The notes beneath the pieces were generated by a model. The model had not been told where the DNA came from. It saw nothing but the letters and a program-made list of their open reading frames with translations, and ran no database searches. The translations under genes were made by a program, and so were the position numbers. From a virus (Duplodnaviria; Heunggongvirae; Uroviricota; Caudoviricetes): DNA of 39,130 nucleotides. Shown one piece after another: positions 22,031 through 38,239 of this stretch (its first letter is position 1; the number at the start of each line of letters is the position of its first letter). The DNA is taken from the IMG/VR virus record IMGVR_UViG_2563366972_000008, positions 1 through 39,130 of that record. One strand, written 5' to 3'.

Positions 22031-22105
<75 letters not shown>

Positions 22106-22108
22106 ATA

Positions 22109-22184
<76 letters not shown>

Positions 22185-22186
22185 AC

Positions 22187-22263
22187 TGGACCGCCACCGG
22201 GGACTCGAACCTCGCACACTCAACTTAAAGGGTTGACGCTCTTTCCTGATGAGCTAGTGGCGG
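22187..22263 (-). tRNA. tRNA-like gene with noncanonical anticodon loop CCUUUAA (possibly Lys-UUU; C at position 33)
   Basis: Acceptor CCGCCAC/GTGGCGG, T-arm with TTCGAGT loop and encoded CCA; anticodon loop lacks the usual U33 and the T-stem has one mismatch. Confidence 0.55.
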
Positions 22264-22264
22264 T

Positions 22265-22340
22265 TGGTGGCCCTTGCTGGATTTGAACCAGCGACCTGGC
22301 GATTATGAGTCGCTCGCTCTCACCACTGAGCTAAAGGGCC
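22265..22340 (-). tRNA. tRNA with CAU anticodon, ileX/ileZ-like (Ile2 or Met)
   Basis: Acceptor GGCCCTT/AAGGGCC, anticodon loop CUCAUAA, TTCAAAT T-loop, CCA; resembles the Ile2 tRNA carried by lambdoid phages downstream of Q. Confidence 0.8.
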
Positions 22341-22572: not shown

Positions 22573-23484
22573 GTGGCTATTTCTCTTGCGCAAAGGATGC
22601 TTTTGATGACGCAGCAACTCGAAAACATGCCAATAACAGAAATCGAAATTGCCTACGGTGGAGAGGCATACGCAGATAATCAGATCGACGCGAAAACATT
22701 AGGCGAAGCCTTAACCTCTCTTAGTGCCCTGATTGAACACGCCGAAAAAATAATTAATGGCGAAACAGCAGAGCCGAAAGTCAACATCAAGGCAACAAAA
22801 GAAGGTTCATTTACTTTGCTTGTTGCTGTGATGGGGAGCATAAAAACTATTAACGCCCTTGGCCTCGTTGCAGGTGGTGGAGTTGCCGCAGGTGGCGTAC
22901 TCGGGATAATCGAATGGCTCAAAGGGCGTAAAATCAGCTCCATTGTCGTCGATGAACAAAAAGATACAGCAGAAATCGAAGTGGATGGTGAGAAGGTTAA
23001 ATGCAGTAACGACATTCAAAAATTAATAACCAGTCCAATCATCCGAAAAGAACTGGATAAATTAATCTATAAACCCCTGCAGACTGAAAAACCATCCACG
23101 TTCTCAGTTTCACAGCAGAAGCATAAGGTAGTCAGGGTGACGCAAGCTGAAGCAGTAAGTTTTAAAACTGCAAAATCCACCTTTGTCGAGAAAACGCACG
23201 TAACGACACGCCAAGCTAATGTACATTTTGCTAATGTTCGATTCAAGCAAGGCAAAAGCTGGGATATCATCCTGCCAAATGGCGAAGAAGTTAGCGCATC
23301 TATGAAAGATGAGGCTTTTCTTGAACGGGTTGAACACAACCAAGCAGCATTCTGTAAGGGTGATCTTTTTGTTGTAGAACTGACAGAAACAACAAAAGAA
23401 ACAAATGGCGCGCTGTCTAAACCACGCTATAGTATTACTAAGGTTATACGCCACAGAGCGGCGGCAGATAGGAAACTACTTTAA
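22573..23484 (+). CDS. Hypothetical protein A of accessory cassette: hydrophobic Gly-rich segment plus beta-rich C-terminal domain
   Basis: 303-aa ORF from GTG 22573; likelier start ATG 22606 behind an AAGGA RBS. Segment LLVAVMGSIKTINALGLVAGGGVAAGGVLGIIEWL; AT-rich codon usage unlike flanking phage genes. Confidence 0.7.
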   Translation: MAISLAQRMLLMTQQLENMPITEIEIAYGGEAYADNQIDAKTLGEALTSLSALIEHAEKIINGETAEPKVNIKATKEGSFTLLVAVMGSIKTINALGLVAGGGVAAGGVLGIIEWLKGRKISSIVVDEQKDTAEIEVDGEKVKCSNDIQKLITSPIIRKELDKLIYKPLQTEKPSTFSVSQQKHKVVRVTQAEAVSFKTAKSTFVEKTHVTTRQANVHFANVRFKQGKSWDIILPNGEEVSASMKDEAFLERVEHNQAAFCKGDLFVVELTETTKETNGALSKPRYSITKVIRHRAAADRKLL

Positions 23485-26732: not shown

Positions 26733-26885
26733 TTAACGTTTTTCAACTTCGTAGGCTAAATACGCTGAAAGCTCTGTGTTTCCCTGCCTGATGTGCAGCT
26801 CGCATAGCGAACCGCGAACCATCCAGACAAATATCAGAATGGTGATGCAAACCACCACCAGACAAAACACATAGCTCCTTCGCAT
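26733..26885 (-). CDS. hok: Hok/Gef-family type I toxin
   Basis: 50-aa ORF (absent from the ORF track) found by hand translation: MRRSYVFCLVVVCITILIFVWMVRGSLCELHIRQGNTELSAYLAYEVEKR; one TM helix plus the conserved LCE motif; AGGGGG RBS. Confidence 0.75.
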   Translation of the reverse strand: MRRSYVFCLVVVCITILIFVWMVRGSLCELHIRQGNTELSAYLAYEVEKR

Positions 26886-26943
26886 TACAGCCCCCTGTTA
26901 GTTGATTTCTTACTGTTAAGAGGCTAATCTTTATGTGTCGCAT
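26743..26943 (-). CDS. mok: mok-like overlapping reading frame
   Basis: 66-aa ORF overlapping hok in another frame and starting about 60 nt upstream, as in hok/mok/sok loci. Confidence 0.45.
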   Translation of the reverse strand: MRHIKISLLTVRNQLTGGCNAKELCVLSGGGLHHHSDICLDGSRFAMRAAHQAGKHRAFSVFSLRS

Positions 26944-27176
26944 ACAGAATGCCTCAGATTAATGTTAAGCGTCTTGCCGGACGCGTAATGTTAACTGGGG
27001 CTTTTCTCTATCTGCCGTTGGTGTTCATGCCCGAGGCAGATAGCCTCAAGCACCCGCAGCAATTCTACTTAACTCTCCTTTTCCCGCAAACCGTTTTTAT
27101 CCCCAGCGGCAAATCGAATACACCACCAGCGCCACCGCCATCGCAATTCCTACCGTTGTGAATGCTTCAGGCCAAG

Positions 27177-30852: not shown

Positions 30853-31278
30853 TCAATGCACAACCACAATATTTCCCGCCGGGCCACCACGATTCATCTG
30901 GTTGAAACCAGCGATCGCCACTGCGACAAAATCATCAGCGTCTCTCACCAGTCGTTCCCGCGTCTCCACCAGCTCCCGAAAATAGGCTGAACTGTGGCTG
31001 CGCATTCGGGCCACCAGCAGAGGTGGCATTGCTTTTTCGATCGCTGGTAACAACGCCTGAATTTTTTTAACCGCATCAGGGGTGTCTTTATCCAGCCAAC
31101 GGAAAATTTTCTGGGTATTACGAGCCAGCGCTTCCGGATGGCTGTCGTCATATAGCTCCGGGAACGTCATACCCAGCTCAAAATAAGCCCGGGTTATTTC
31201 AGCTGCCGGAACTTTTTCACCGTCCGGATGCGCCCAGGCATTCATCGCCATACGGATGTGTTCATGCTTGATTTTCAT
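30853..31278 (-). CDS. CII-position regulatory protein (YdaT-like, putative)
   Basis: 141-aa ORF immediately downstream of and overlapping the cro-like gene, upstream of the replication genes. Confidence 0.5.
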   Translation of the reverse strand: MKIKHEHIRMAMNAWAHPDGEKVPAAEITRAYFELGMTFPELYDDSHPEALARNTQKIFRWLDKDTPDAVKKIQALLPAIEKAMPPLLVARMRSHSSAYFRELVETRERLVRDADDFVAVAIAGFNQMNRGGPAGNIVVVH

Positions 31279-31537
31279 GAATCAACTCCGGTGTATTTGG
31301 TGTGTTAGCCTTATCTCCAGCAGGCAACCCGTCAGTTGGATTCGGGTATAAATCTGGTCGCAATTCATGAGGAGTAACCCCAGTTGCAATATAAATTTGA
31401 CGAACCCGTTCCCCCGTCGGAACTCGACCATTGTATTCATTTGCCCATTTGTGTATTTGAGATGGCCAAGCCCCTATTGCACGCCCTAGCGGACGAATAC
31501 CACCAGCAATCTTTATTGCTTTGTCCAATGCTGTCAT
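31262..31537 (-). CDS. Cro-like HTH regulator (YdaS/Cro family)
   Basis: 91-aa ORF divergent from the repressor gene, with HTH-like segment and GGAGG RBS. Confidence 0.7.
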   Translation of the reverse strand: MTALDKAIKIAGGIRPLGRAIGAWPSQIHKWANEYNGRVPTGERVRQIYIATGVTPHELRPDLYPNPTDGLPAGDKANTPNTPELIHENQA

Positions 31538-31562
31538 ACAACCTCCAGTTCAACTAACCACA

Positions 31563-31634
31563 ACAATTGTTCACTTAAAACGAACATAAGTCAACACCTC
31601 GAGGAATTGTTAGTGTTCACTGAACGGTTATAAT
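31563..31634. promoter_or_regulatory. Immunity switch: two related operator-like sites overlapping divergent promoters
   Basis: Site A ACAATTGTTCACTTAAAACGAACA and site B GGAATTGTTAGTGTTCACTGAACGG share AATTGTT...GTTCAC; plus-strand TTGTTA-16-TATAAT ends 6 bp before the repressor ATG; minus-strand TTGACT -35 element. Confidence 0.5.
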
Positions 31635-31640
31635 TGCTAA

Positions 31641-32030
31641 ATGGACATGAGAAAAAAGCAATACGACACCCCGCTAGCAGAAAGGTTAGATGCGATCTCT
31701 CAACAGCATCATTTAAGTGGTTCAGATTTAGCGCGTATCGCTGGTGTAGGTCGTTCATCAGTCAACGCATGGAAAAAAAGAGGAACAATCAGTAAAGATT
31801 CCGCAGCCAAAATTGCAGAAGCCACAAACGTTTCCCTTTCTTGGCTACTGACAGGGAAAGAAGAGACAAATAGAGAAGCGCTTGATGATGACGAGAAGGC
31901 CCTGCTTGATGTTTACAGAAACCTGCCACCCGTAGAACGTAGAAATATGCTGGCAGCTTTTCAAATGCGACTTCAAAAACTGACCGAATTTTACTCAGAA
32001 TACGTCGACCCAATAACACGACAAAAATAA
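31641..32030 (+). CDS. HTH_XRE repressor (DicA/CI-like)
   Basis: 129-aa ORF with HTH (LSGSDLARIAGVGRSSVNAWKK), divergent from cro-like gene, heading the ydfABC-dicB-like operon. Confidence 0.75.
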   Translation: MDMRKKQYDTPLAERLDAISQQHHLSGSDLARIAGVGRSSVNAWKKRGTISKDSAAKIAEATNVSLSWLLTGKEETNREALDDDEKALLDVYRNLPPVERRNMLAAFQMRLQKLTEFYSEYVDPITRQK

Positions 32031-32513: not shown

Positions 32514-32732
32514 ATGCAGAAACGAGAACCCGTCATCATCGCGCCAGACTATACCGATGATGAACTTTATGAGTGGATGCGCCAGAAAATTAATGCAGCG
32601 CAGGATCTGAAATGGGCCAATGAAGCCAGGGCTAAGCAGGCTGAAAATCTGTCCGCTCTGGAGCAGGATATCACCAGGCTGGAAAAAGCAGCGGCATTAA
32701 GCATTGCCAGAATGATTACATACCCGCGTTAA
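32514..32732 (+). CDS. ydfC: YdfC-like protein
   Basis: 72-aa ORF with GAGGAA RBS; same length and position as Qin ydfC. Confidence 0.6.
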   Translation: MQKREPVIIAPDYTDDELYEWMRQKINAAQDLKWANEARAKQAENLSALEQDITRLEKAAALSIARMITYPR

Positions 32733-32867
32733 TAGCTAACCAACGAAGCTAAGGTTGGTAATTAAGGAGTTCTCCACGGGTGAGGTGGAGTGCGTGCGCC
32801 GGACACGGGTGAGCATCCGGTACGTTCTTTAAAAATCTGGATAGTCCCAACTTATTTAAACGGTTAA

Positions 32868-33299
32868 TTATCTTGAGTTCATCCAGAACTTATTATTGCA
32901 AGCGGGGCAAAAAGTACGAAAATGAGCATCAAAGCGCATTATTTCCATTGGCTGAAGTACAGATATTACCTTTTTTCCAAAACATTGTGGGCAAAGATGC
33001 ACAGTTATCTCAGTATCGCCTATAAATTGCTTCTTGGAATATACAAGGGTTCCAGAATCAAGCTTGTTAAGCTTGTAACCTTCCGCCTGTCGCTGAAAAT
33101 CTTCTGTCTCTGCAATTTTTGCTTTGAGATGCATTATCTCTTCATCACGAAAGCGGATCGCATCGCAAAGAGAGAAGCATTCCGCCTGAAGCGTGATTAG
33201 TTTGTTCTGAAGTTCAATAGTTGCGGCTTTAACTTCTGCATCCGTTTTTGCGTCATTAATAACCTTAGCGAGACCAGCTGTCTCCTTTATCGCAGCCAT
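32868..33299 (-). CDS. Hypothetical coiled-coil / C-terminal zinc-ribbon protein, reverse-oriented in the early-left operon
   Basis: 143 aa from ATG 33299 (MAAIKETAGLAKVINDAKTDAEV...); CPQC...CPAC pairs near the C-terminus; AT-rich; opposite strand to all neighbours. Confidence 0.55.
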   Translation of the reverse strand: MAAIKETAGLAKVINDAKTDAEVKAATIELQNKLITLQAECFSLCDAIRFRDEEIMHLKAKIAETEDFQRQAEGYKLNKLDSGTLVYSKKQFIGDTEITVHLCPQCFGKKVISVLQPMEIMRFDAHFRTFCPACNNKFWMNSR

Positions 33300-33629
33300 A
33301 GCCGCTGACAGTTCTGCTATCACGTTGAGTACTCTTCTCGTTGTTGGGGATATCCGGATTATACAAATTTCTTGTTGTTGGGGAATAACAGGAACCACCT
33401 CGCCTGACGTGGTTAAAAGCAGGCACACAACGCGAAAGCGTACGGCGAGGTAGCTGGTTTATAGATAGCCTGTCGTTAAATTTTCGTCGACCGTGCGCTT
33501 CCGGTTGTGGCACTCCGCGAAATGGCGCGGCGGTAAGTATGGCGGGGTTATTCCTTCCCCGTTGAGGACACCAGGTTGTCAGGTTGACCATACGCTTAAG
33601 TGACAACCCCGCTGCAACAACCCATGTTG

Positions 33630-33686
33630 ATTACCTTTTGGCGGGTATCCGTTTTTTGTTTTCCCTTGTGATACCCGCCCTTTTTA
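33630..33686 (+). ncRNA. dicF: DicF-like sRNA 3' module with intrinsic terminator
   Basis: Perfect 10-bp inverted repeat GGCGGGTATC (33640-33649) / GATACCCGCC (33670-33679) then CTTTTT, about 180 bp upstream of dicB; downstream tract AAAGTGAATTTTGTGATG recalled from the Qin dicF-dicB spacer. 5' end not determinable. Confidence 0.4.
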
Positions 33687-33868
33687 AAGTGAATTTTGTG
33701 ATGCGGTGAATGCGGCTCAGCGCACGCGGAACAGTTAAAAAGGCCAGTTGACTTCCGTATTGGTTCTTATGGGTGGGTTCTCTGTATCCGGCGTTAATTG
33801 TTAACTGGTTAACGTCACCTGGAGGCACCAGGCACCGCATCACAAAATTCATTGTTGAGGACGCGATA

Positions 33869-34057
33869 ATGGAAAAGTTATCATGCAATGCCAGTACGTC
33901 TGAACTTCGTTTCGAAATTGGCGTTATCACTGGAGACAAAACATTTATTGAAGACGCCATTAAGCAGAGAAAACTCGAGCATGACCTGTTAAATGAAGTA
34001 TGCATTCCTTCAATGCTGGCTCGTCTTGACCTGCTGCAAAAAGGATATAAACAATGA
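33869..34057 (+). CDS. dicB: Cell division inhibitor DicB
   Basis: 62-aa translation MEKLSCNASTSELRFEIGVITGDKTFIEDAIKQRKLEHDLLNEVCIPSMLARLDLLQKGYKQ resembles K-12 DicB as recalled; GAGGA RBS. Confidence 0.75.
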   Translation: MEKLSCNASTSELRFEIGVITGDKTFIEDAIKQRKLEHDLLNEVCIPSMLARLDLLQKGYKQ

Positions 34058-34245
34058 ATACAACATTTGCACTCGTTCTGACAGTTTATCTTGTTTCCGG
34101 CGAATCTCTTGAGCTGGTGACTGGCTTATACGGTTCAATGAAAGAATGCATGGCTGCCGCAGCAGAACAAAAAATTCCCGGTAACTGTTATCCGGTAGAT
34201 AAAGCTACTCACACTAATAATAACGAAATACCGGCAGGACTTTAA
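34054..34245 (+). CDS. ydfD: YdfD-like small membrane/lysis protein
   Basis: 63-aa ORF overlapping the dicB stop (ATGA); N-terminal hydrophobic helix; same length and position as Qin ydfD. Confidence 0.6.
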   Translation: MNTTFALVLTVYLVSGESLELVTGLYGSMKECMAAAAEQKIPGNCYPVDKATHTNNNEIPAGL

Positions 34246-34338
34246 AACAGCACCGTAATTAATATCCGGTTTTATTTTTATATGCCAGCAATGGCAGGGA
34301 TTTGTTCACCCTTAAATCTGTAATGAGGTTAAAACAAA

Positions 34339-36810
34339 ATGAGTAAAGTCTTTATTTGCGCCGCCATTCCGGACGAACAGGCAATAAAGGAAGAAGGTGC
34401 AGTCGCTGTAGCCACTGCCATTGAAGCCGGTGACGAACGCCGCGCCCGTGCCAAATTTACCTGGCAATTCCTGGAGCAATATCCGGCTGCTCAGGACTGC
34501 GCTTATAAATTTCTTGTCTGCGAGGATAAACCCGGCATGCCCCGCCCTGCTATCGACTCATGGGATACCGAATATATGCAGGAAAACCGCTGGGATGAAG
34601 AGTCAGCCTCTTTTGTCCCGGTCGAACCAGAATCCGATCCGATGAACGTCAATTTTGACAAGCTGTCCCCTGAAGTGCAGAACGCAGTCCTGGTTAAGTT
34701 CGGTACATGCGAAAACATCACCGTTGATATGGTGATTAGCGCACAGGAGTTACTGCAGGAAGACGTGGCGACATTCGACGGGCATATCGTTGAAGCACTG
34801 ATGAAAACACCAGAAATTAACGCTATGTATCCGGAACGCAAACTGTTCGCTATCGGATGGGTTAAACATAAATGTAAGCCTGGCGCAAAATGGCCGGACA
34901 TTCAGGCCGAATTACGTAACTGGAAAAAACGGCAGGACGCAGAGCGCAAAGAGACTGGAAAATACACGTCTGTTATTGATCTTGCCCGCGCCAAAGCCAA
35001 CCGACAGCACACTGAAAACCCGGCGGGAAAAATCCCCCCTGCCACTGCTGCCATTCGTCGTGAATACAAGCAGACATGGAAAACACTGGATGAAGAACTG
35101 GCCTACGCTCTCTGGCCTGGTGATATTGATGCCGGAAACATTGACGGCAGCATCCATCGCTGGGCAAAAAATGAAGTTATCGACAAGGATCGCGAAGACT
35201 GGAAGCGCATCTCCGCATCAATGCGCAAACAGCCTGATGCGCTTCGCTACAGCCGTCAGACGATTTTTGGTCTCGTTCGCGAACGTCCGATCGACATTCA
35301 CAAAGACCCTGTGGCACTGAACAAATACATTACTGAATACCTGACTACAAAGGGCGTGTTTGAAGATGAAGGAACAAATCAGAGCGCAACTGATACTCTC
35401 TCGTCGCCAGTACCAGAAACTGATGCAGTGGAAACGGCAATTCCGGACAACGAAAAAACCGAATGCAAAGTGGAAGTCGAACCATCTGTAGAGCGTGAGG
35501 GGCCGTTCTACTTCCTCTTCACCGACAAGGATGGCGAAAAATACGGTCGCGCAAACAAACTTTCTGGTCTGGATAAGGCGCTGGCTGCCGGGGCTACTGA
35601 AATCACGAAAGAAGAATATTTCTCCCGCAAAAACGGTACATACTCAGGTTCACAACAAAATACTGGTGCATCTGACACGACCGCACAACCAGAGCCGGTA
35701 AAAGTTACCGCTGAAGAAGTAAACAAAATTATGCAGGCAGCCAATATCAGCCAGCCTGACGCCGATGAACTGCTTGCAGTATCACGTGGTGAATTTGTTG
35801 CAGGGATTAGCGATCCGAATGATCCGAAATGGGTGAAGGGGATTGAAACCCGCGATTCTGTGAACCAGAACCAGCAAGAAACGGAACAGAACGACCAGAA
35901 AGCGGAACAAAACAGCCCAAATACGCAACAAAACGAGCCAGAAACGAAACAACCTGAACCAGTAGTGCAACAGGAACCGGAAAAGATCTGCACCGCCTGC
36001 GGTCAGAGCGGTGGCGGCAACTGCCCTGATTGTGGTGCGGTGATGGGTGACGCAACATACCAGGAAATATTCGATGGAGAGAATCAGCCTGAAGTTCAGG
36101 AAAATGATCCGGAGGAAATGGAAGGCACTGCGCATCAGCACAAGGAGAACACTGGCGGCAATCAGCATCATGCCAGCGATAGTGAAACTGGCGAGGCGTC
36201 AGATCCCTTAATTAAGGTGAACGGTCATCATAATCTCACATCCTCCAGCAGAGCGGGAATTCATCTGATGATCGACCTTGAAACCATGGGAAAAAATCCC
36301 GATGCCCCGATTATCTCAATAGGCGCAATATTTTTCGATCCGCAAACCGGAGATATGGGACCGGAATTTAGTAAGACTATCGATCTGGAAACTGCTGGCG
36401 GAGTCATTGATCGGGACACCATTAAATGGTGGCTTAAGCAATCACGCGAAGCGCAATCTGCCATTATGACCGATGAAATCCCGTTAGATGATGCACTGTT
36501 ACAATTGCGGGAATTTATCGACGAAAACTCCGGTGAATTTTTTGTTCAGGTCTGGGGAAATGGAGCCAACTTCGACAACACGATTTTGCGCCGTTCATAC
36601 GAACGGCAGGGGATCCCCTGCCCGTGGCGCTACTGCAACGATCGCGATATACGCACAATCGTTGAGCTGGGGAAAGCCATAGACTTCGATGCCAGAACTG
36701 CTATCCCATTCGAAGGTGAGCGCCATAATGCACTTGATGACGCTCGTTACCAGGCAAAATACGTTTCAGCTATCTGGCAAAAACTGATCCCGAGTCAGGC
36801 TGATTTTTAA
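34339..36810 (+). CDS. Large early protein with C-terminal DnaQ-like (DEDDh) 3'-5' exonuclease domain; full-length YdfE-like
   Basis: 823-aa ORF; C-terminal motifs MIDLETMG, WGNGANFD and HNALDDARY; acidic Q/E-rich linker with a CTAC...CPDC zinc-ribbon-like motif. Confidence 0.8.
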   Translation: MSKVFICAAIPDEQAIKEEGAVAVATAIEAGDERRARAKFTWQFLEQYPAAQDCAYKFLVCEDKPGMPRPAIDSWDTEYMQENRWDEESASFVPVEPESDPMNVNFDKLSPEVQNAVLVKFGTCENITVDMVISAQELLQEDVATFDGHIVEALMKTPEINAMYPERKLFAIGWVKHKCKPGAKWPDIQAELRNWKKRQDAERKETGKYTSVIDLARAKANRQHTENPAGKIPPATAAIRREYKQTWKTLDEELAYALWPGDIDAGNIDGSIHRWAKNEVIDKDREDWKRISASMRKQPDALRYSRQTIFGLVRERPIDIHKDPVALNKYITEYLTTKGVFEDEGTNQSATDTLSSPVPETDAVETAIPDNEKTECKVEVEPSVEREGPFYFLFTDKDGEKYGRANKLSGLDKALAAGATEITKEEYFSRKNGTYSGSQQNTGASDTTAQPEPVKVTAEEVNKIMQAANISQPDADELLAVSRGEFVAGISDPNDPKWVKGIETRDSVNQNQQETEQNDQKAEQNSPNTQQNEPETKQPEPVVQQEPEKICTACGQSGGGNCPDCGAVMGDATYQEIFDGENQPEVQENDPEEMEGTAHQHKENTGGNQHHASDSETGEASDPLIKVNGHHNLTSSSRAGIHLMIDLETMGKNPDAPIISIGAIFFDPQTGDMGPEFSKTIDLETAGGVIDRDTIKWWLKQSREAQSAIMTDEIPLDDALLQLREFIDENSGEFFVQVWGNGANFDNTILRRSYERQGIPCPWRYCNDRDIRTIVELGKAIDFDARTAIPFEGERHNALDDARYQAKYVSAIWQKLIPSQADF

Positions 36811-36868
36811 TGTTCAACCCTAATTGCCGCTAACCGTATATAGTTAGCGGCGGTTATGAGATATAGCT

Positions 36869-37072
36869 ATGAGCAGCTTATTTTTAACCGAAGATGAATT
36901 GCTAATATTAACGGGCTGCAAATATGCAAGCCACCAGCGAAAATGGTTAATGGAAAACGGGCTTCCGTTCTATACCAATCGTAGTGGCAAACCGATTGTC
37001 AGCCGGGATCTATTTACCTGCAATAAAACTTTACCACCACGCGAGGTAGAGCCGAATTTTGGTGCGATCTGA
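36869..37072 (+). CDS. xis: Excisionase (Xis)
   Basis: 67-aa ORF immediately upstream of and overlapping the integrase start. Confidence 0.7.
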   Translation: MSSLFLTEDELLILTGCKYASHQRKWLMENGLPFYTNRSGKPIVSRDLFTCNKTLPPREVEPNFGAI

Positions 37073-38097
37073 TGGGAAGACGAAGGAAAAATCCTGAACA
37101 CGAAAAATTACCTCCAAATGTATACCCAAATAAATATAGTTATGTATGGAAACCAACATCCAGAGAATCTGTCACACTAACCGCCATCAAGGATGGTTTA
37201 GCTGCTTTATGGAAAAAGTATGAGGAAACTGTAAATAATCGCGATCGTGCAATGACATTCGGTCGCTTGTGGGAAAAATTCCTCGCCAGCGCCTATTACA
37301 GTGACCTTAGTCCAAGAACACAAAAAGATTATCTGCAACATCAAAAAAAGTTGCTTGCCGTATTCGGTAAGGTACCAGCGGATTCCATAAAACCAGAACA
37401 CATCCGTCGATACATGGACAAAAGAGGGGAGCAGAGTAAAACGCAAGCCAACCATGAAAAAAGCAGTATGTCCCGTGTTTACAGTTGGGGGTATGAGCGA
37501 GGGTACGTGAAGGCTAACCCATGTGCAGGTGTAAGTAAATTCAAGGCCAAAAACCGCGAACGATATGTAACCGACAAAGAATACCAGGCAGTATTAAGCG
37601 TTGCACCTCTTCCTGTTTTTATCGCAATGGAAATTGCCTATCTGTGTGCAGCGAGGGTTTCCGATGTGTTATCGCTGAAATGGGAACAGATTGGAAACGA
37701 CGGGATATTCATCCAGCAAGGGAAAACCGGAAAAAAACAGATAAAAGCATGGAGTCCACGATTACAGGCAGCGATCGAAAAAGCAAAACAGTTACCAAAA
37801 TCTGCCTATGTGATCAGCAATCAATACGGCAACCGATATATGTACAAAGGCTTTAACGAAATGTGGGTAGAAGCAAGAAATCGTGCTGGAAAAATTTCAG
37901 GTATTTTAACCGACTTCACCTTTCATGATCTGAAGGCGAAAGGAATTTCAGACTATGAAGGAAGCAGCCGGGATAAGCAACTTTTCTCTGGTCACAAAAC
38001 CGAAGGGCAAGTGCTAATCTATGACAGGAAGGTTAAAATTTCACCAACACTTAATGTCCCGTTACCTGAAAATATTCCAAGAAAATATTCCAAGTAA
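37072..38097 (+). CDS. int: Tyrosine integrase
   Basis: 341-aa ORF with tyrosine-recombinase C-terminal catalytic region, 52 bp from a tRNA gene. Confidence 0.9.
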   Translation: MGRRRKNPEHEKLPPNVYPNKYSYVWKPTSRESVTLTAIKDGLAALWKKYEETVNNRDRAMTFGRLWEKFLASAYYSDLSPRTQKDYLQHQKKLLAVFGKVPADSIKPEHIRRYMDKRGEQSKTQANHEKSSMSRVYSWGYERGYVKANPCAGVSKFKAKNRERYVTDKEYQAVLSVAPLPVFIAMEIAYLCAARVSDVLSLKWEQIGNDGIFIQQGKTGKKQIKAWSPRLQAAIEKAKQLPKSAYVISNQYGNRYMYKGFNEMWVEARNRAGKISGILTDFTFHDLKAKGISDYEGSSRDKQLFSGHKTEGQVLIYDRKVKISPTLNVPLPENIPRKYSK

Positions 38098-38149: not shown

Positions 38150-38239
38150 TGGCGGAGAGAGGGGGATTTGAACCCCCGGTGGAGTTGCCCCCACTCCGGT
38201 TTTCGAGACCGGTCCGTTCAGCCGCTCCGGCATCTCTCC
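38150..38239 (-). tRNA. serU: tRNA-Ser (anticodon CGA), serU-like; probable attachment site
   Basis: 90-nt cloverleaf with long variable arm, anticodon loop CUCGAAA, acceptor GGAGAGA/TCTCTCC, encoded CCA. Confidence 0.85.

Follow-up and report, generated by a model that had tools for sequence, protein, structure and literature searches.

The IMG/VR record IMGVR_UViG_2563366972_000008, analysed here over its whole length of 39,130 nucleotides (nt) and referred to below as the window, holds a lambdoid prophage of the Tritos/mEp460 type, probably inserted at tRNA-Ser(CGA). The final gene of its leftward early operon is an intact, ATG-started open reading frame (ORF) of the ydfE type that encodes an 823-residue protein; dicB and ydfD lie upstream in the same operon, and the excisionase gene (xis) follows directly, with no gene in between, ahead of the integrase gene (int). 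The layout is given in Table 1. An original prediction, made from the sequence alone, had called an intact gene of this type after ydfD, and this call is confirmed. We found that the protein is best described, from its alignments, as a RecE-type scaffold that carries a different catalytic head, a DEDDh exonuclease domain, and that it belongs to a family of prophage proteins in which heads of several kinds occupy the same scaffold.

Table 1. Features of the window and of the ydfE-type protein. AF2, AlphaFold 2; pLDDT, predicted local distance difference test.
Feature	Residues	Position	Strand	Context	Evidence
ydfE-type exonuclease gene		34339..36810	+	final gene of the dicB (leftward early) operon, ahead of xis/int	PHROG 2082, YdfE families
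N-terminal domain, YdfE_N type, folded alpha/beta and helical	1-204	34339..34950	+		
Helical domain, RecE homology starting at about residue 262	245-343	35071..35367	+		AF2 pLDDT about 75-90
Small beta-hairpin/helix domain (ERxGPFYF...GRANK...EI..EEY)	385-437	35491..35649	+		pLDDT 77-88
Acidic Q/E-rich linker, mostly disordered	438-625	35650..36213	+		composition; pLDDT <50
Putative C4 zinc knuckle, CxxC-x7-CxxC	C551, C554, C562, C565	35989..36033	+		sequence, conservation
Head-swap junction	about 621-625	36202..36213	+		end of blastn homology
DEDDh head (DnaQ-like, Rv2179c/DexA-type)	636-823	36244..36810	+		PF16473, catalytic residues, alignments
dicB		33869-34057	+	upstream, same operon	Pfam DicB, E 9.8e-38
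ydfD/DUF1482		34054-34245	+	upstream, same operon	Pfam DUF1482, E 3.2e-19
DUF4224 excisionase (xis)		36869-37072	+	directly downstream of the exonuclease gene	Pfam, PHROG
Tyrosine integrase		37072-38097	+	downstream of xis	Pfam, PHROG
tRNA-Ser(CGA)		38150..38239	-		ARAGORN, Rfam
Cro/DicC-like		31262-31537	-	immunity region	Pfam Phage_CI_repr/HTH_3, PHROG repressor families
CI/DicA-like repressor		31641-32030	+	immunity region	Pfam Phage_CI_repr/HTH_3, PHROG repressor families
Chi octamers		7743, 14134, 17666, 19381, 19977, 20287, 20724, 22420, 25217, 25269, 25675, 25802, 27123, 30966, 31011, 31500, 36931			
Four-tRNA cluster (Gly-TCC, Thr-TGT, Lys-TTT, Met-CAT)		22031-22340	-	between Q antiterminator (upstream) and lysis genes (downstream)	
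303-residue ORF		22573-23484	+	between phage tRNA cluster and Q region	PADLOC, PHROG
sok antitoxin RNA		26883-27055	-	nin region	Rfam RF01794
186-residue ORF with CxxC...CxxC motifs		32868-33428	-		PHROG 1244
STnc100 match, below threshold		33692-33846	+		33.7 bits against 47

The C-terminal part of the protein (residues 642-813) matches Pfam PF16473 (Rv2179c-like 3′-5′ exoribonuclease; E 1.8e-66), scoring 223.6 bits where the cutoff is 27 and covering positions 2-177 of the 177 in the profile. Its motifs IDLET (D646, E648), NFD (D746) and HNALDD (H796, D801) supply every catalytic residue of Exo I (DxE), Exo II (D) and Exo III (Hx4D), and these five residues are invariant across 67 family members. 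The original prediction had read three DnaQ-like motifs at this end of the protein, made an exonuclease call from them and proposed a domain search as its check; the search returned the DEDDh family, and the full-length PHROG match carries the name 'exonuclease'. A sequence search of the PDB with the head retrieved 8kel and 8ken (E 2.4e-6 to 8kel), a 227-residue 'Exodeoxyribonuclease' identified as T4 DexA through Kang et al. (PMC12153337), and the head could be aligned both with T4 DexA (27% identity) and with the stand-alone homologue gp34 of phage epsilon34 (56% identity). An RNase H-like alpha/beta fold would be expected of the domain from sequence evidence, by which the enzymatic class of the head as a DEDDh exonuclease is secure, and a 3′-5′ polarity is predicted at the level of the family from DEDDh membership.

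The region ahead of the head is related to RecE, the exodeoxyribonuclease VIII of the Rac prophage. By BLASTP, residues 262-625 align with RecE 278-591 (E 2e-60) and are near-identical from residue 470 on, and the NCBIfam RecE equivalog NF007259 matches residues 245-625 at model positions 270-602 with 268.6 bits, below its cutoff of 1269. The small domain at residues 385-437, which aligns to a gap in Rac RecE, is the best-conserved block among relatives of the YdfE_N type, with G388, P389, F390, Y391, R404, N406 and K407 invariant in a 40-sequence alignment. The linker that follows it is nearly identical to RecE 455-591, as seen by BLASTP and by blastn against recE, and encloses the C4 knuckle CTACGQSGGGNCPDCGAV in a tract with many D/E and Q/N residues and few hydrophobic ones; both the acidic tract and the motif had been pointed out in the original prediction. 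All four cysteines are invariant in 67 homologues and are also kept in Rac RecE and in the protein of phage 813R8, and the knuckle would be expected to bind metal.

The point at which the RecE homology ends is sharply defined. DNA homology detected by blastn ends at position 36202 with the PD-(D/E)XK-headed gene of locus L091 and at 36212 with Rac recE, the nucleotide identity to recE being about 82% over the final 300 nt or so of the shared region. The DEDDh-headed gene of phage 813R8, which has a RecE-type N-terminus, is homologous through the stop codon, to position 36819. No PF12684 match and no BLASTP alignment to RecE 600-866 were found in the window protein, and thus the PD-(D/E)XK domain of RecE was not detected in it. 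The nuclease domain of RecE has been placed at residues 564-866 (PMC11611040), and the region ahead of it has no known function according to reviews (PMC11611040, PMC11610958). The homology between YdfE and RecE stops exactly at the start of the RecE nuclease domain, and the acidic linker with its zinc knuckle, which the original prediction had treated as a zinc-ribbon linker of this protein, is therefore a feature of RecE and not one specific to YdfE.

To place the gene among its relatives, 1.84 billion representative proteins were searched with residues 1-640, which gave 255 clusters, and heads were typed by Pfam and phmmer on 47 representatives of at least 550 residues. Four C-terminal heads were found on N-termini of two kinds, YdfE_N and PF06630 (that of RecE), in all combinations tested. 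YdfE_N was joined to the DEDDh head in 2 of the representatives, to the PD-(D/E)XK head in 3, to a third head in 14 and to a fourth in 6; for the RecE N-terminus the corresponding counts were 3, 8, 1 and 2, with a further 7 that had no recognised head. Phage 813R8 is an example of the RecE N-terminal part joined to the DEDDh head. The partner gene depends on the head type, and in sibling prophages recT always comes after the PD-(D/E)XK-headed gene. At the Escherichia coli loci L091 and L096, whose N-terminal part is 93-95% identical to that of the window, dicB and ydfD are followed by a YdfE_N::PD-(D/E)XK gene and then by recT, lar, a DUF1187 gene, xis and int, so that recT stands directly next to the nuclease gene as it does in Rac. 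At loci L092-L094 a YdfE_N scaffold bears the third, Rad52-like head and there is no separate annealase; gamL lies directly upstream of the Rad52-headed gene in L092 and L093 (Citrobacter koseri). In the window, mEp460, 813R8 and Tritos alike, xis comes straight after the DEDDh-headed gene. Taken together, the alignments suggest that the window gene arose by head-swapping on a shared scaffold in the same operon slot.

The third head is marked by the motif KKSLTDAxKKALSxLGFSAD. Pfam Rad52_Rad22 was the top match for two of the three third-head sequences scanned, although its scores (E 0.026 and 0.042) did not reach the cutoff, and neither a profile search of the PDB nor hhalign comparison with single Erf and Bet sequences returned a match. 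In an AF2 model of one such protein (P0290, mean pLDDT 71.9) the sole Foldseek hits with E values of at most 1e-3 were to the human Rad52 N-terminal domain (1h2i, E 4.9e-5; 5jrb, E 5.7e-5), and it is this comparison of a predicted structure that decides for a putative Rad52-like assignment. We noted that the proteins of L092-L094 (P0290, P0271), together with about 40 relatives (P0271-P0312), have no detectable nuclease domain and carry the predicted C-terminal Rad52-like fold on a YdfE scaffold, while being labelled 'exodeoxyribonuclease VIII' or 'exonuclease' in prophages of Citrobacter, Klebsiella, Enterobacter, Kosakonia, Pantoea and Erwinia; judged from the model, they are probably misannotated fused annealases. 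They may also correspond to the nuclease-less 'RecE-2' of PMC12315714. The fourth head occurs on the same scaffold in the proteins of L095 (P0311), P0126 and P0217, corresponds to PHROG 26058 and has the motif SGRTDV...LSPxFSDxEIHxVATTILDxWSD; at L095 its gene is followed by a DUF7740 gene, xis and int.

No annealase accompanies the DEDDh-headed gene. The original prediction had seen no Bet/RecT/Erf-like gene before xis and had proposed a survey of neighbouring genes in homologous loci, and both searches bear it out. None of the sizeable ORFs in the early region (20-34 kb) matched the RecT, Bet, Erf or Sak4 families in PHROG or Pfam, and tblastn searches seeded with RecT, Bet, Erf, Sak4-like, epsilon34 gp36, single-stranded DNA-binding protein (SSB), Exo, Gam and Abc2 sequences were negative both for the window and for 80 IMG/VR loci. 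These 80 loci all have the gene with YdfE_N, core and DEDDh head, 74 of them together with dicB and ydfD; their cores share at least 90% identity, and such closely related loci are not independent samples. The same scans showed no recombinase hidden elsewhere in the early region, and an annealase inside the 823-residue protein itself was also rejected: where P0290 and similar relatives have their Rad52-like domain, the window protein has the DEDDh head instead.

In contrast to the 1.6 Chi octamers (GCTGGTGG) expected from shuffled sequences, the window contains 17. Thirteen are on the late-gene (top) strand and four on the bottom strand, and eight of the thirteen lie at 20.7-31.5 kb, beside the lysis/cos end. 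According to a recent survey (Zheng et al., Genome Res 2025, PMC12315714), Chi sites build up in this orientation in lambdoid phages that have no anti-RecBCD function, and such Chi-rich phages are proposed to use host RecBCD for recombination-dependent growth. Table 1 of that survey lists a small class described as 'nuclease only, no annealase, no anti-RecBCD', of which Tritos is the prototype, and the strand distribution in the window falls within the range given for this class (21/6 to 7/2). The pattern of Chi sites in the window is the signature of RecBCD-dependent, Chi-rich lambdoid phages, and the prophage belongs to the Tritos class; the missing recombinase fits such a lifestyle. DnaQ-type nucleases are reported inside lambdoid Rec modules in the same source, which counts epsilon34 gp34 as a Rec-module nuclease, and we confirmed the epsilon34 gene order as gp36 (putative recombination protein), SSB, the DnaQ homologue gp34 and Abc2. 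In its passages that bear on this class, the chimeric architecture of RecE scaffold and DEDDh head is not described, nor is a role for the protein.

The gene is already known, annotated and widespread, and is among the commonest prophage genes of E. coli. PHROG 2082 matches all 823 positions, and a 99%-identical NCBI protein (P0001) is named '3′-5′ exoribonuclease' and has precomputed Pfam matches to YdfE_N (PF27430), YdfE_C (PF27432) and the Rv2179c-like family; it is through these matches on P0001 that the window protein is assigned to YdfE_N and YdfE_C, and the YdfE families are found on all listed relatives as well. The stretch from dicB to xis matches 4811 of 5426 complete E. coli genomes, 3386 of which hold at least 80% of it. 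At 82-93% identity the gene is present in phages mEp460_ev081, Evi, Tritos and HannyBb and in several Stx2a-phage-associated prophages, and it is full-length in the viable phages Tritos, mEp460 and Evi. Tritos carries the same gene (83% identity over residues 1-638) in the same dicB-ydfD-exo-xis-int layout; with CI at its head, this layout is common to the phages that carry the gene, and the upstream order dicB-ydfD recurs in mEp460, 813R8 and Tritos.

We compared the gene (34339-36810) with its counterparts in mEp460, Tritos and the IMG/VR loci. For the folded modules the pairwise ratio of nonsynonymous to synonymous substitution rates (dN/dS) was about 0.07-0.27, compared with 0.23-0.59 for the linker, and the gene is therefore maintained by purifying selection. 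Within a single gene pair dS differed about ten-fold between modules, with values against mEp460 of 0.52 for the N-terminal domain and 0.04-0.12 for the rest, which shows that recombination breakpoints lie inside the gene. In K-12 (DH10B, J53) the match covers window positions 33700-35105 only, at about 84% DNA identity, and then runs into the transposase of the insertion sequence IS2. K-12 ydfE, a pseudogene of the Qin prophage, shares the upstream dicB and ydfD and is an orthologue by this locus context, and its sequence indicates that it consists of the first 255 or so codons, cut off by IS2 and lacking the RecE-like part and the exonuclease head; since the match runs into IS2, the suggestion in the original prediction that it is a truncated remnant is upheld. 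The RecE-like middle third, the head-swapping family, the fit with Chi and RecBCD and the fact that the gene is common and annotated had all escaped the original prediction.

The remaining features of the window are those of a lambdoid prophage. The Cro/DicC-like and CI/DicA-like genes form an immunity region (31262..32030) that, we infer, controls the leftward operon holding the exonuclease gene; a promoter scan directly upstream of the exonuclease gene gave no signal above chance. The early region has further PHROG matches to a RusA-like resolvase, an HNH/DUF968 protein, Q, a replication initiation protein, a P-like helicase loader, a Ren-like protein, CII, Cro and CI. At the integrase end, tRNA-Ser(CGA) is likely to be the attachment site and the end of the prophage, and beyond it lies an ORF that, from reading its translation, we take to be a host mtfA-like gene. 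We also observed a 303-residue ORF that matches PADLOC PDC-S42 (E 3e-53) and PHROG 3243, a family without known function, and is probably a moron-type defence gene; it lies close to a cluster of four tRNA genes. The nin region also matches the sok antitoxin RNA (93.7 bits), which points to a toxin-antitoxin locus of the hok/sok type there. Upstream of dicB (32700-33900) the DicF small RNA, which is annotated at that place in phage Tritos, was not detected; this region includes a match to STnc100 that stays below threshold and an ORF on the opposite strand that belongs to PHROG 1244, a family without known function.

Known systems share some features with the protein and differ from it in others. 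RecE occupies the same slot in the Rac prophage, in a lambdoid leftward early operon just ahead of xis and int, and is likewise a large protein with a C-terminal nuclease domain that shares the C4 knuckle and the acidic tail. In contrast, its head is of the PD-(D/E)XK type and acts 5′-3′ whereas that of YdfE is DEDDh and predicted to act 3′-5′, its N-terminus is PF06630 whereas the first 245 or so residues of YdfE are of the YdfE_N type, and it is followed by a translationally coupled recT where YdfE is followed by xis. T4 DexA and the E. coli protein EcD ('HREX') resemble YdfE in belonging to the DEDDh Rv2179c-like subfamily, in their catalytic residues and in coming from a phage or prophage, but both are stand-alone proteins, while the YdfE head is fused to a 635-residue scaffold, does not conserve the equivalent of DexA W152 and is found in the early operon of a temperate phage. 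Salmonella phage epsilon34 gp34 is also encoded in a lambdoid leftward early operon, but it has about 180 residues, no scaffold and a position between the SSB gene and abc2, with gp36 upstream, partners that YdfE does not have. Two-component recombinases of the Red/RecET type differ from YdfE both in their adjacent annealase (RecT/Bet, Erf, Sak or Sak4), for which no counterpart was found in the early region, the window or the 80 loci, and in their 5′-3′ exonuclease that leaves 3′ tails, which the YdfE head, as a member of a family acting 3′-5′, would not match.

Our preferred reading, which we hold tentatively and at somewhat less than an even chance, is that the gene encodes a 3′-5′ DNA exonuclease that is expressed on induction or infection, is held at its site of action by the scaffold and processes 3′ ends alongside host RecBCD and RecA. 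The protein would be made from the repressor-controlled leftward early operon after induction or infection, and expression might be confined to that operon. Its RecE-like scaffold would keep the nuclease where it acts, and the DEDDh head would remove nucleotides at free 3′ ends through two-metal catalysis by D646, E648, D746 and D801, with H796 as general base. As an accessory nuclease it could trim or blunt the 3′ tails of phage DNA ends or of recombination intermediates. Strand exchange would be left to host RecBCD and RecA, because the phage is rich in Chi and has no annealase and no anti-RecBCD gene. By analogy, the stand-alone homologue of the head in the epsilon34 recombination module and the sibling scaffolds that carry a RecE-type nuclease with recT, or a Rad52-like annealase, would support a role in RecBCD-dependent recombination with DNA rather than RNA as substrate.

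Several observations weigh against this preferred reading. The substrate and polarity of the family come from homology, and the head is named an exoribonuclease by Pfam and NCBI, after Rv2179c. In the AF2 model the pLDDT of the head region is below 50, since proteins bearing several kinds of head had been aligned together, and Foldseek returned weak hits to oligoribonuclease (E about 0.6); a structural search with the scaffold gave no informative match, and 'tethering' by the scaffold is a conjecture. As PMC12315714 points out, RecA requires 3′ tails, which enzymes of 3′-5′ polarity usually degrade, and such exonucleases tend to be inhibitors of recombination; a pro-recombination role is for this reason not obvious, and DnaQ-type genes beside int are there explicitly excluded from Rec-module genes. 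A broader version, which is conceivable but which we consider rather unlikely, is that the YdfE/RecE scaffold is a general docking platform with interchangeable heads, whose DEDDh form, in Chi-rich phages with neither an annealase nor an anti-RecBCD protein, trims or blunts 3′ ends so that RecBCD can load and run to Chi.

Other functions can be envisaged for the same protein. Homology of the head to T4 DexA raises the prospect of an HREX-type nuclease for prophage defence or superinfection exclusion that would degrade the incoming 5-hydroxymethylcytosine (5hmC) DNA of T-even phages, since Kang et al. 2025 (PMC12153337) report that EcD, a homologue of DexA from E. coli, is able to digest T4 DNA and gives cells protection, and the presence of the dicB-to-xis stretch with the gene in most complete E. 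coli genomes would suit such a role. We regard this as unlikely. EcD is another, stand-alone protein, the cloning primers of which encode a MIDTET... start and a ...TIPETYD end, and W152 of DexA, needed for 5hmC recognition (PMC12153337), corresponds to C766 in the window protein and to H, C, Y or S, never W, in 67 members. At the S87/D90 tetramer contact of DexA, residue counting puts P opposite S87 and D opposite D90; the alignment around the acidic D169 is unreliable. The position at the end of a repressor-controlled early operon with no promoter signal of its own above chance also speaks against defence, the only PADLOC match of this protein being to a generic Cas-associated DEDDh model (E 2e-5), and both the fusion to a RecE-like scaffold and the siblings with recT or Rad52 point to recombination instead.

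The readings that follow are less likely than defence. A nuclease that degrades host DNA for nucleotide scavenging during lytic growth, or that acts on host nucleic-acid defence molecules such as the products of retrons or reverse transcriptases, is improbable, although early lytic expression would fit, the neighbouring dicB and ydfD are host-directed and T4 DexA itself is annotated and described as acting in host DNA degradation (PMC12153337): none of the results connects the family with breakdown of host DNA, the free ends would call for a partner endonuclease and there is none, the scaffold is common to recombination proteins, and an anti-defence target lacks direct evidence. The family names and the weak oligoribonuclease hits mentioned above could instead speak for an RNA exonuclease that trims or degrades phage or host transcripts, for example the long RNA of the dicB operon; this we think quite improbable, given that sequence searching led to a single relative of solved structure, the DNA exonuclease DexA, that stand-alone homologues sit in DNA recombination modules and that the scaffold is common to DNA recombination enzymes. 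Processing of DicF was rejected as a variant, the prophage having no detectable DicF RNA. Least probable of all, and hardly to be expected, is that the gene is a functionless, drifting relic of a RecE-type gene that lost its nuclease head and recT by accidental recombination. The missing annealase partner, the destruction of the K-12 copy by IS2 and the description of one- and two-gene Rec modules as 'somewhat suspect' in PMC12315714 would be in keeping with decay, but purifying selection contradicts it: dN/dS is low in every folded module, no catalytic or zinc-knuckle residue varies, viable phages carry the gene at full length and the greater part of the dicB-to-xis stretch is retained in the thousands of E. 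coli genomes counted above.

What this analysis adds is the placement of the ydfE-type gene in a head-swapping family built on the RecE scaffold, together with an explanation for the missing recombinase. The family amounts to a natural experiment, with one scaffold bearing nucleases that act in opposite directions or else an annealase, and this speaks for a scaffold that provides localisation or partner binding whatever the chemistry at its tip. The extra activity of full-length RecE in linear-linear recombineering comes from this scaffold, and the role of the RecE N-terminal region becomes directly testable. Many proteins annotated as 'exodeoxyribonuclease VIII' in prophages of Klebsiella, Enterobacter, Citrobacter and Pantoea appear to be Rad52-like annealases and not nucleases. 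For Chi-rich lambdoid phages that lack a recombinase, the DEDDh-headed protein is a concrete candidate for the means by which they cooperate with RecBCD; if the scaffold is indeed a docking platform, this protein would be a helper of the host pathway rather than a substitute for it, and the purpose of the N-terminal region of RecE would be explained.

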